A stretch of 57,519 bases of DNA from the NCBI GenBank assembly GCA_032718475.1, contig JAUCBJ010003968.1, forward strand, positions 1 to 57,519, in the 5' to 3' direction. Below are positions 4,201 through 7,200 of the stretch, in pieces. Under the pieces are notes generated by a model, which searched no databases, was not told the origin of the DNA, and saw only the letters and a list, made by a program, of their open reading frames with translations. Source of the stretch: Nemertoderma westbladi. Taxonomy: Eukaryota; Animalia; Xenacoelomorpha. Position 1 is the first letter of the stretch. Each line of letters starts with the position of its first letter. Position numbers and translations under genes: made by a program.

Positions 4201-7200
4201 GCTTGTTTACACCTTTTTAGATGTTGACGAATGTACATTAAATACCCACAACTGCCACAGTAATGCCGACTGCACAAATACCGAGGGTGGATTTAGTTGC
4301 TCCTGCAACTCTGGGTATTCTGGAGATGGTAAAGATATCTGTACAGGTAATTAAGTGTTAATTAATAAAATATTACACGAGAGAAAAGTACGTTAGTAAT
4401 TCGCTATACACAATGCGTCACCATTGTACGTATTCCGTAAATTATTGCCATAGATCTATTATACGTTCCCAGAAAAACTTTTGAATACTGTCATTTTCAA
4501 AACTGGAACTAGTAATCCATTTTAGTTCTTGGCCATAATTCTCCCGAAACTATATTCTATGAGGCCTACTAAAAATAGGAGAAATTATAAACCCTCAGGA
4601 TTCCATGAATTTTGCAATTCCTGATGTGTTCAAAATTCAGGAGTGCCTCGAGCAGATGTTCCCTTTAATCAGGGTCGCCTTCGGATCTAAATCAAGCTAA
4701 CGTATTAACCGCTAATGCAACAGCCAGAAAAGGAATCCTTACTTGCTTGGAGGTTATTGATATACTCAATAATATCAGGGGTCCCAATCCCATATCAAAA
4801 TGCGTTTATTTGACATTTAGAAATATACACAAAAAAATACAATTAATTTTTCACACAAACATTAGTTCGGTATATTCGCGAGATTTTAACAGTTACTGTT
4901 AGTGTCCTTATCTTGTTTATTTATTTTTGTTTATGATTACCTATTAATTGTCTGTGTAGTTGTTACTATAACTCATTCTTGATAGTTAATATTTTTTGTT
5001 AGTAACTATCACATGTTGCTTGCTTGCTCACATTGTGTATATAGATAGACGCATGTCTGGGTCAGGAGTCGTCATTCAATGTCGTTTACCAACCGCTTAT
5101 TGATTATCTTGATTATGTCAATAAACTGTGTTATTTCACAACATTATACATTTATGAGAACTTCACCTTGACATGAGATTGATGGCCAAAGGGATATACA
5201 TTCCATAATATTGGGATACTTTCACAATAAAACCGTATTATATGGGTGTTTTGGTAGATATAATATTATCGTTTTGTTCAGAAATGTAAAAAATGAGAAG
5301 GCGCGACACCGGGGGTTGAACCAGCGCTATACTTACGTTTCACCCTATCAGGCCTCATCAGTAGCGCTAACCAGTTCAGCCACTTGCCCCTGACATTCAC
5401 TATCCCACCTAATCCACTTCTATTGAAGTTAAGTTGCATATCCTATCTCTAACAGCGGACAAAACCATAATATTACATCATTAATTACAGTTGCATTAAC
5501 AGCTCAACTCCAATTCATTTTTTGTAGATTTACCCAAATCACCACATCCTCGTACATATCCATGTACAGATCAGCTGTGTGCACTTTCTATAATATGTAG
5601 GGTATATTTTCCAGTATCATTAAAAAAATAATTATCATACATATTGCCATTAGTTTCAGTTTCATAACATATTTTGCAGATGATAACGAATGCACATCAA
5701 ACACACACAACTGCCACAGTAATGCCGACTGCACAAATACCGATGGTGGGTTTAATTGCGTCTGTAAATCTGGTTATTCGGGCAATGGTGTAACATCGTG
5801 TGATGGTAAGAATTAAATAATAATTTATCATTGTATGTTCTTTAAATTAATTTCCCTAAACATTGAACTATATATTAATTTCAATTTTATTACATAAAAG
5901 TCGTTCATATATATTTCAATTCACATTAAATACATAAAAGTCGTTCATATATATTTCAATTCACATTAAACTGCCTACTGGTACTTTCATTTAATGCTCA
6001 CATTTACGCAGTCTTGGAAGAAGCATTTGATGGGTAAGTTTAATTCATGAGACTTCCAGTAGATATTGTACTTGATTTAGGTTCCACCTTGGTGTAGTGC
6101 TCGCATTGAATTCACATCTCCCGTAGGTCGTGGGTTCGATCCTCACATGGGCCAGGGCAGTTTTCGTTTCGGCACGAATGCTTTAAAGGGACCAGCCAGG
6201 GCGCATCTCTGCCTTGCATCCTTGAGTGGTAGCTAAATGAGTACTGAAGTTTCCTCCGGGTAGTAACTCTCGATTTATTGTTTTGGTTATAATTATGTGC
6301 CACTACAATCTACTCCTTTCTCTCTTAATTAACACTTAACAATGTTAATTGACTGCGACAAGATAGATTTGCGCCAATAATCCCTAACCCCACTAATTTA
6401 CCTGCAGTAATGTTCTGGATTAAAATTATAAATATTTTGAGGGAAGTGCATAGTATGGTGAAGACCGGTAGGCCGAAAACTTTTACAACTTACTCAACCA
6501 TCTAGAGATAAAATAATTATATTCTTAATCAATAGCTACAGGTATTAAGTAACCTGTATAATCTCGTGATATGTGTTAACTTTCATTTATTGTTTTGGTT
6601 CCCCCAACATGCCTCTGTAACCTACTCCTTTACTAACCTGCTTCTTTGAATGGCAATATGACCTAACGCTCTTTGGGACCTAACGCGACTTTACCTCTTT
6701 GTTTTGTACAGGTCCAAAAGAGCGTTAGGTCCCAAAGAGCGTTAGGTTCCATTGCCATTTAAAGGAGCAGGCTAGTAAAGGAGAAGGTTACAGAGGCGTG
6801 TTGGGTGAACCAAAACAATAAACTGAAGTTAACACACGTGTTTTGTACAGGTCTTTATTTTTTGGGTCTTTAGACTTTGTTTTGTACAGGTCTTTAGTTT
6901 TTGGGTCTTTAGACTTTGTTTTGTACAGGTCTTTAGTTTTTGGGTCTTTAGACTTTGTTTTGTACAGGTCTTTAGTTTTTGGGTCTTTAGACTTTGTTTT
7001 GTACAGGTCTTTAGTTTTTGGGTCTTTAGACTTTGTTTTGTACAGGTCTTTAGTTTTTGGGTCTTTAGACTTTGTTTTGTACAGGTCTTCAGTTTTTGGG
7101 TCTTTAGACTTTGTTTTTTACTCACCCGTATTAAGAGTGAATTTAAGGTGGTCTACAATATAACAGGGTAATATTATAATGTTAAGTTCTAACTTTAAAA

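Follow-up and report, generated by a model that had tools for sequence, protein, structure and literature searches.

Genomic setting of the repeat

The window, by which we mean the whole stretch of 57,519 nucleotides that was analysed (Nemertoderma westbladi, contig JAUCBJ010003968.1), carries genes interspersed with the remains of mobile elements. On the plus strand, four calcium-binding EGF-like exons, followed by exons with weak Pfam matches to ligand-gated ion channels (E 1e-4 and 6e-3), extend over 1110–5810 and 8830–9900; they possibly belong to a single channel gene with EGF domains or to two separate genes. Exportin-6 (42765–46094, +) is encoded by one uninterrupted frame of about 1100 aa in a stretch of 55% G+C and shares about 40% identity with its homologues from molluscs and equally with those from vertebrates. 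A 5'-nucleotidase (51951–53768, −) likewise occupies a single uninterrupted frame of 605 aa, and both differ in this from a neighbouring gene with many short exons.

Decayed reverse transcriptase fragments of RTE-like and other LINEs are found at 2040–3900, 10560–11500, 33200–34700 and 49828–50439. A 32-bp unit, repeated 78 times at 99% identity (12311–14817), lies directly behind another reverse transcriptase fragment (11984–12223), and LINE-like sequence reappears past this array near 15790. There are two further tRNA-type SINE-like repeats with B boxes (6090–6300, +, and 10270–10460), and a palindromic B box at 10424–10433 can be read on both strands. Long inverted repeats or palindromes at 6572–6836, 19036–19108, 26646–28713 and 31581–31711, some with sub-threshold microRNA-type Rfam matches, are likely head-to-head or fold-back mobile elements. 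Copy 1 of the repeat described below is situated in an intron between the EGF-like exons and is antisense to them.

A hammerhead motif between A and B boxes

On the minus strand, an A box of the TRGCNNARYGG type lies in a D-arm-like segment (5371–5382), and a B box (5313–5322) starts 60 nt past the A box start. The two are at a workable spacing for a Pol III promoter and are followed by a run of six T (5288–5293), the predicted terminator; a pattern count over the whole window gave no other A+B pair of this consensus. Enclosed by the boxes is a type I hammerhead (5323–5368), recognised from the sequence, the majority letters of family contigs and folding. It comprises a perfect helix I of 7 bp (5368–5362/5329–5323), the CUGAUGA core (5361–5355), helix II (5354–5351/5345–5342), GAAA (5341–5338), a palindromic helix III (5338–5331) and a GUA triplet (5332–5330), helices II and III being defined with the help of the majority letters. 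The cut is predicted between 5330 and 5329. All of these parts lie where the earlier note had placed them, and its central observation, a ribozyme lodged between the two boxes, is borne out: the hammerhead fills the place of tRNA positions ~27–48.

In the window, the combination of A box, core, GAAA, UH and B box has a single occurrence; none of 300 simulated windows with matched dinucleotides contained it. Core plus B box occurs twice, compared with once in 300 simulations, and an 18-nt motif has two matches where 0.04 are expected. The second occurrence is a further copy (copy 2, 7478–7582, −), 90.6% identical to copy 1 over 106 nt. It is truncated 5 nt upstream of the core, hence without A box, and is damaged by the deletion of C15.2 and by impairment of helices I and II. 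A lone CUGAUGA followed by GAGAC, a near-match to GAAAC, at 8300–8334 (−) is possibly a decayed hammerhead of another family.

In the Rfam check proposed by the earlier note, in which the scans took in the damaged local copies only, the copies matched Hammerhead_3 (RF00008) alone, at 12.5 bits and E 9.5, and showed no match to RF00163. At the level of the whole window there was no match at the locus, only palindrome-driven microRNA-type matches below threshold.

The family in public DNA contigs

Family evidence was drawn from the contigs of four DNA runs (X1–X4) from at most three samples, with letter variants taken from the best 40 of 58 rows and joints from the best 15 of 81. The numbers of contigs aligned to the element were 1945, 1135, 1341 and 105, respectively. 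In X1–X3, depth summed over contigs was ~1e5–4e5 at the ribozyme and about 27–56 in the flanks, a ratio of hundreds to thousands which is not a copy number. This excess supports a very high-copy family, and from it we infer a family size of thousands of copies.

Depth is high over 5262–5453, with a sharp edge before 5261 where AT-rich, mutually unlike flanks begin. On the other side, 17 X1 contigs run on past 5460 with one common sequence that has no other occurrence in the window. The repeat is thus far larger than 5288–5390, the extent first assigned to it. Across the predicted cut site the depth is unbroken. Among the joints listed, one locus breaks at 5329 and one at 5330, a weak hint of cleavage; a third breakpoint, at 5331, is explained equally well by a small deletion.

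Two positions at which copy 1 has private changes lie in the ribozyme. Position 5333 is G (plus strand) in 98, 97 and 92% of summed depth in X1, X2 and X4, and position 5343 is G in 99, 98 and 88%. Most listed positions vary by less than 1% in X1 and X2, and the family is therefore young. In X4, some core variants reach 7–9%, each in one or two contigs. One deep X4 contig (5293–5360) has a bulged helix I compared with the main family and a more tRNA-like 3' end, with CCA directly before the T run, as read from the linkage of rows of equal depth.

Folding of the ribozyme and predicted dimer dependence

Copy 1 as found gives no hammerhead fold, the pair probability of helix II being ≤0.01. With the majority letters, 5343 repairs helix II and 5333 turns helix III into an 8-nt palindrome; inside the Pol III unit, helix II then forms with p 0.93–1.0 and helix I with p 0.6–1.0. 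The helices II and III which the earlier note had obtained by merging the two local copies are confirmed by the public DNA contigs, and the CUGANGA, GAAA and UH core with helices I and II is present in both sequence and family majority; loss of core or stem pairing, named in advance as what would speak against a ribozyme, was not observed in the contig majority. As a monomer, the majority-letter helix III reaches p 0.01–0.02, and as a self-duplex it forms 8 bp at −9.8 kcal/mol. For the family hammerhead, cutting is predicted in the dimer and not in the monomer, a behaviour described for other animal hammerheads (PMC4209133, PMC6765202).

Within 5327–5357, all listed core variants stay below 1% in X1 and X2. 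Three variants reach at least 2% in one or the other of these runs, and each of them is compatible with the fold (chance 0.03–0.07): one lies in loop II, one changes G-C to G-U and one U-A to U-G in the dimer helix III. In one X4 contig (depth 1108) a 4-nt insertion is accompanied by a change in its partner strand that keeps helix I closed, provided that equal depth reflects linkage. The three variants are only suggestive in so young a family, in which the low variation of the core is likewise weak evidence of selection.

Predicted leader–trailer pairing and tRNA likeness

Cleavage had been expected to split the RNA into tRNA-half-like pieces, and this expectation is not supported. Helix I takes three of four bases of the D-stem 3' strand and three of five of the T-stem 5' strand, so that a tRNA fold and the ribozyme fold are mutually exclusive. 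Folding of the majority letters yielded no acceptor stem; the trailer pairs upstream of +1 instead. ARAGORN reported no tRNA at the locus (0). A cloverleaf with a grafted anticodon arm is ruled out by this result, the stem overlap and the missing acceptor stem in the folds.

The pairing partner of the trailer is a leader (5387–5422), most of which precedes the predicted start of Pol III transcription (+1, ~5391). It forms 30 pairs with 5279–5313, seven of them G-U, and the predicted product is a rod of ~150 nt with the hammerhead at its tip and the T run partly paired with the leader and buried. The fold of 153 nt has z −4.5 with majority letters (0/300 shuffles) and z −1.2 for the copy as found. 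Three of three majority letters in the trailer, found independently, restore a pair with the leader upstream of +1, and because of this the 5' end of the RNA under selection likely precedes the Pol III start. When ten common variants were placed in the rod singly, a model that disregards linkage and indels, three kept a pair, four broke one and three were unpaired.

Element ends, inverted pieces and target duplications

The main (sense) piece of copy 1 (5260–5459, −) is 5'-truncated, with its 3' end placed at 5260/5261 by contig depth. Its A/C-rich end, closing in a 10-nt A/T palindrome (5260–5277), is repeated in inverted orientation at 5459–5476. There it opens an inverted piece (5459–5519, +) made of this 17–18-nt end and a tail of 43 nt with a weak hairpin. 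The whole is flanked by a target-site duplication of 11 bp with one mismatch (5249–5259 and 5519–5529; 10/11 identical, null 0.4%). In copy 2, the inverted piece (7583–7600, +) consists only of the last ~18 nt of the tail, 15/17 identical to 5504–5520, and an exact 13-bp duplication (7469–7481 and 7601–7613; 13/13, null 0.1%) overlaps the element end with the last 4 nt of its left copy. Both sites are A/T-rich, and the duplications rest on these two copies, with no empty site among them.

Both copies (2/2) thus have an inverted partner piece with a tail at one end only, and both share their outer ends: the sense piece stops at the same A/C-rich position (5260 and 7478) and the inverted piece at the tail tip (5519 and 7600). 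Sense and inverted piece measure 200 and 61 nt, respectively, in copy 1; the corresponding lengths for copy 2 are 105 and 18 nt. On the element, the two fixed ends are 43 nt apart, and they correspond to putative start sites of reverse transcription at 5519/5520 (site 1) and 5260/5261 (site 2).

The contigs extend this picture to the family. Loose ends are seen at 5459 and 5520, with opposite-strand joints, and the sense 3' segment is joined directly to the tail in 39, 23 and 31 contigs of X1, X2 and X3. Inner junctions fall at varied positions among the best 15 of 81 joints and also in copy 2; no head-to-tail joint is among these 15, and both local copies are single. A fixed unit of 260 nt, from which copy 2 would derive by internal deletion, is contradicted by the loose ends and joints.

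No frame for a mobilising protein accompanies the repeat in the window. The only ATG frame of the element stops at 5278, short of its end; no ORF of PLE (Penelope-like element) type, with reverse transcriptase and GIY-YIG domain, is linked to the repeat within the window; and the GIY-YIG domain had 0 matches among 137 window frames of at least 62 aa, a set that leaves out tandem arrays and ten listed frames.

Search for the same layout elsewhere

One layout pattern returned 63 loci (37 metagenome, 2 viral, 24 prokaryote), none of them with A box, helix I and helix II together; two were type I hammerheads of the ordinary kind that lacked an A box, and four represented one unrelated family. A second pattern gave three viral loci in which no A box was seen by eye, and the family's own motif had 0 matches in the viral collection. 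The collections hold few animal genomes, hence the search is no test of rarity. Two loci, L014 and L034 (505–549 in each), contain a canonical type I hammerhead (RF00163, 45.3 bits) with palindromic helix III and no A box.

L010, L013, L018 and L029 are four contigs of one metagenome data set that share 123 identical nt and then diverge, so that the shared sequence is a repeat end. In L018 (30–125) and in the other three, an A-box-like D-arm hairpin serves as helix I of a hammerhead core, with a perfect B box and a T arm behind it. We read the topology as probably type III. The Rfam score is 27.6 bits against a threshold of 48.5, in another register, and the energy of the ribozyme fold exceeds the minimum by 10 kcal/mol. 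The flanks look fungal by eye.

Discussion

The locus is best explained as a damaged copy of a very high-copy animal repeat which is probably mobilised by PLE machinery and probably non-coding, and in the end region of which A and B boxes flank a hammerhead of predicted dimer type. Between a short non-autonomous unit and the pLTR of a coding PLE we lean slightly towards the former.

The ends of the repeat resemble those of PLEs with hammerhead-bearing pLTRs, such as Adineta Pen2a (PMC3846280) and Anolis PAc (PMC11167929; see also PMC4209133, PMC8557442), in the head-to-head inverted insertion, the optional tail of 30–45 nt at one end, target duplications of ~10 bp at A/T-rich targets and a type I hammerhead with palindromic helix III shortly upstream of the end. 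PLE insertions have been described with an inverted pLTR, an optional tail of ~31 bp and duplications of 8–10 bp (PMC3846280, PMC8557442). In PAc, the tail lies between two reverse transcription start sites in an A/C-rich stem-loop, with the hammerhead 85–92 nt upstream (PMC11167929). In the present repeat, the predicted cut precedes the two ends by 70 and 113 nt. Unlike PLEs, the repeat has no linked ORF and carries Pol III boxes and a T6 run around its ribozyme, in the place of which the Pen2a pLTR has a putative TATA/Inr (PMC3846280). It also departs from the minimal PLE ribozyme in having a helix I of 7 bp and a helix III of 2 bp.

The following cycle would account for these features. Long sense RNAs starting upstream of the A box would adopt the rod fold, the ribozyme forming its tip. 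A/T-rich DNA would be nicked on both strands, 10–13 bp apart, by a PLE protein that primes at two fixed RNA sites, 5260 and the tail end; the resulting insertion would have one piece in sense orientation and one, with the tail, in inverted orientation, between duplicated target sites. The Pol III boxes may drive an RNA of ~100 nt that holds the whole ribozyme and could act as a dimer partner in trans, and read-through of T6 would give a Pol III RNA that also covers the downstream end and tail. Dimer cleavage after 5330 would fall between the boxes, so that linear RNA, once cut, could no longer transmit a functional promoter. Given the unbroken depth across the cut site, promoter-bearing copies would then derive from uncut or re-ligated (circular) RNA. 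In PAc, uncut RNA is the main template (PMC11167929); in animal retrozymes, ends of this kind are joined by RtcB (PMC7229834). Several points count against the PLE model: no PLE protein was found among the window frames scanned, T6 separates the promoter from the priming sites, Helentron-type elements would account for the ends as well, the target duplications come from two copies, and cleavage is dispensable for the insertion of PAc in vitro (PMC11167929).

The combination of promoter and hammerhead is already known. Like the present repeat, Sm-alpha and Sj-alpha of Schistosoma possess a tRNA-derived Pol III promoter and a type I hammerhead at very high copy number (PMC6765202, PMC2770079), the promoter of Sm-alpha having its origin in tRNA-Gln (PMC2770079). 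In these repeats the promoter is described as preceding the ribozyme, and the units as tandem (PMC6765202); in the present one, the boxes enclose both the ribozyme and its predicted cut, T6 comes behind them, and the ends resemble those of PLEs. Animal non-LTR retrozymes share the type I hammerhead with a 2-bp helix III and tetraloop, a length of a few hundred nt, strongly self-paired RNA and long target duplications, and they form tandem repeats and circular RNA (PMC7229834); they are described as promoterless (PMC7761336). The non-autonomous Helenus LTR elements have tRNA-derived A/B boxes in their terminal repeat, and differ from the repeat in LTR class, PBS and duplications of 4–5 bp, no hammerhead being mentioned in the accessible part of their description (PMC10886601). 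The literature covered, mostly open-access, contains no element with a ribozyme between A and B box, nor do the parts available of PMC10886601, PMC5680766, PMC7761336 and PMC6685494; the supplements of PMC4209133 and PMC7229834 might list one.

Closest to the earlier note is the view that the repeat is a Pol III SINE moved by a LINE, or a tandem retrozyme of the Sm-alpha type, its inverted end being incidental. The A/B boxes, T6 and target duplications of variable length fit this view, as do the plentiful RTE-like and other LINE reverse transcriptase fragments in the window, the drop in contig depth upstream of 5390, and the published dimensions of animal retrozymes, 170–400 nt, highly self-paired and with longer duplications (PMC7229834). 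We consider it unlikely, since the ends of the element differ from those of the Pol III unit. The mobile unit includes no fewer than 68 nt in front of the predicted Pol III start, extends 28 nt past T6 and bears an inverted, tail-carrying end of PLE type in both local copies, which is at odds with a plain SINE. The prominent loose ends near +1 continue into further element and not into random flank, no tandem joint occurs among the best 15 of 81, and neither a 3' tail in common with any LINE nor a simple-repeat tail was found within the window.

PLE mobility may also be correct and the tRNA boxes a silent relic, with Pol II read-through as the only source of RNA and the nesting without regulatory meaning. 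A review describes retrozymes as seemingly promoterless and dependent on read-through (PMC7761336), the conserved rod requires a start upstream of +1, and the locus has neither cloverleaf nor acceptor stem nor ARAGORN match. We nevertheless regard silent boxes as distinctly unlikely, because both fit the consensus at a workable spacing with T6 behind, and neither is broken by a common variant among the best 40 of 58 rows, the lone A-box variant, at 5375, still being a purine.

Very improbable is the plus-strand reading of the element as a Helentron-associated (HINE/DINE-1-like) rolling-circle DNA element with a merely captured tRNA/hammerhead fragment: Helentrons are not known to duplicate their target, and here duplications flank 2/2 copies, the left end has no TT site, the inner repeat is wholly missing from copy 2 and in many cases comes directly after the sense 3' segment, behaving as a variable inverted piece, and the 7 G-U among 30 pairs of the leader–trailer helix point to RNA. 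What speaks for it are the asymmetric subterminal inverted repeats with a 3' hairpin of Helentron/HINE type, which the element does possess: a partly palindromic inverted repeat marks one end and recurs 43 nt short of the other, with a hairpin behind it, both ends having similar contig depth. The published layout has subTIRs 2–4 nt from the 5' end and 38–60 bp from the 3' end, with a preference for TT and, for Helitrons, no target duplication (PMC4067079).

The PLE-mobilised repeat with a ribozyme-split Pol III promoter could be one case of a recurring design, a generalisation that we regard as doubtful. Its own hammerhead would cut between the boxes, only uncut or re-ligated RNA would seed promoter-bearing copies, and the short terminated Pol III RNA would be the trans dimer partner that switches on the cleavage of dispersed monomers. 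Such a design would have arisen at least twice, based on type I in the present repeat and on a type III-like hammerhead in the unrelated, probably fungal repeat of L010, L013, L018 and L029.

For animal hammerhead elements, two questions are open, namely how they are transcribed and which function the ribozyme has in PLEs (PMC7761336, PMC8557442, PMC11167929). A very abundant, young family with overlapping promoter and ribozyme makes both testable in a construct of ~100–250 nt. If our interpretation is true, the repeat would be transcribed by Pol III and owe its mobility to PLE machinery, not to a LINE.
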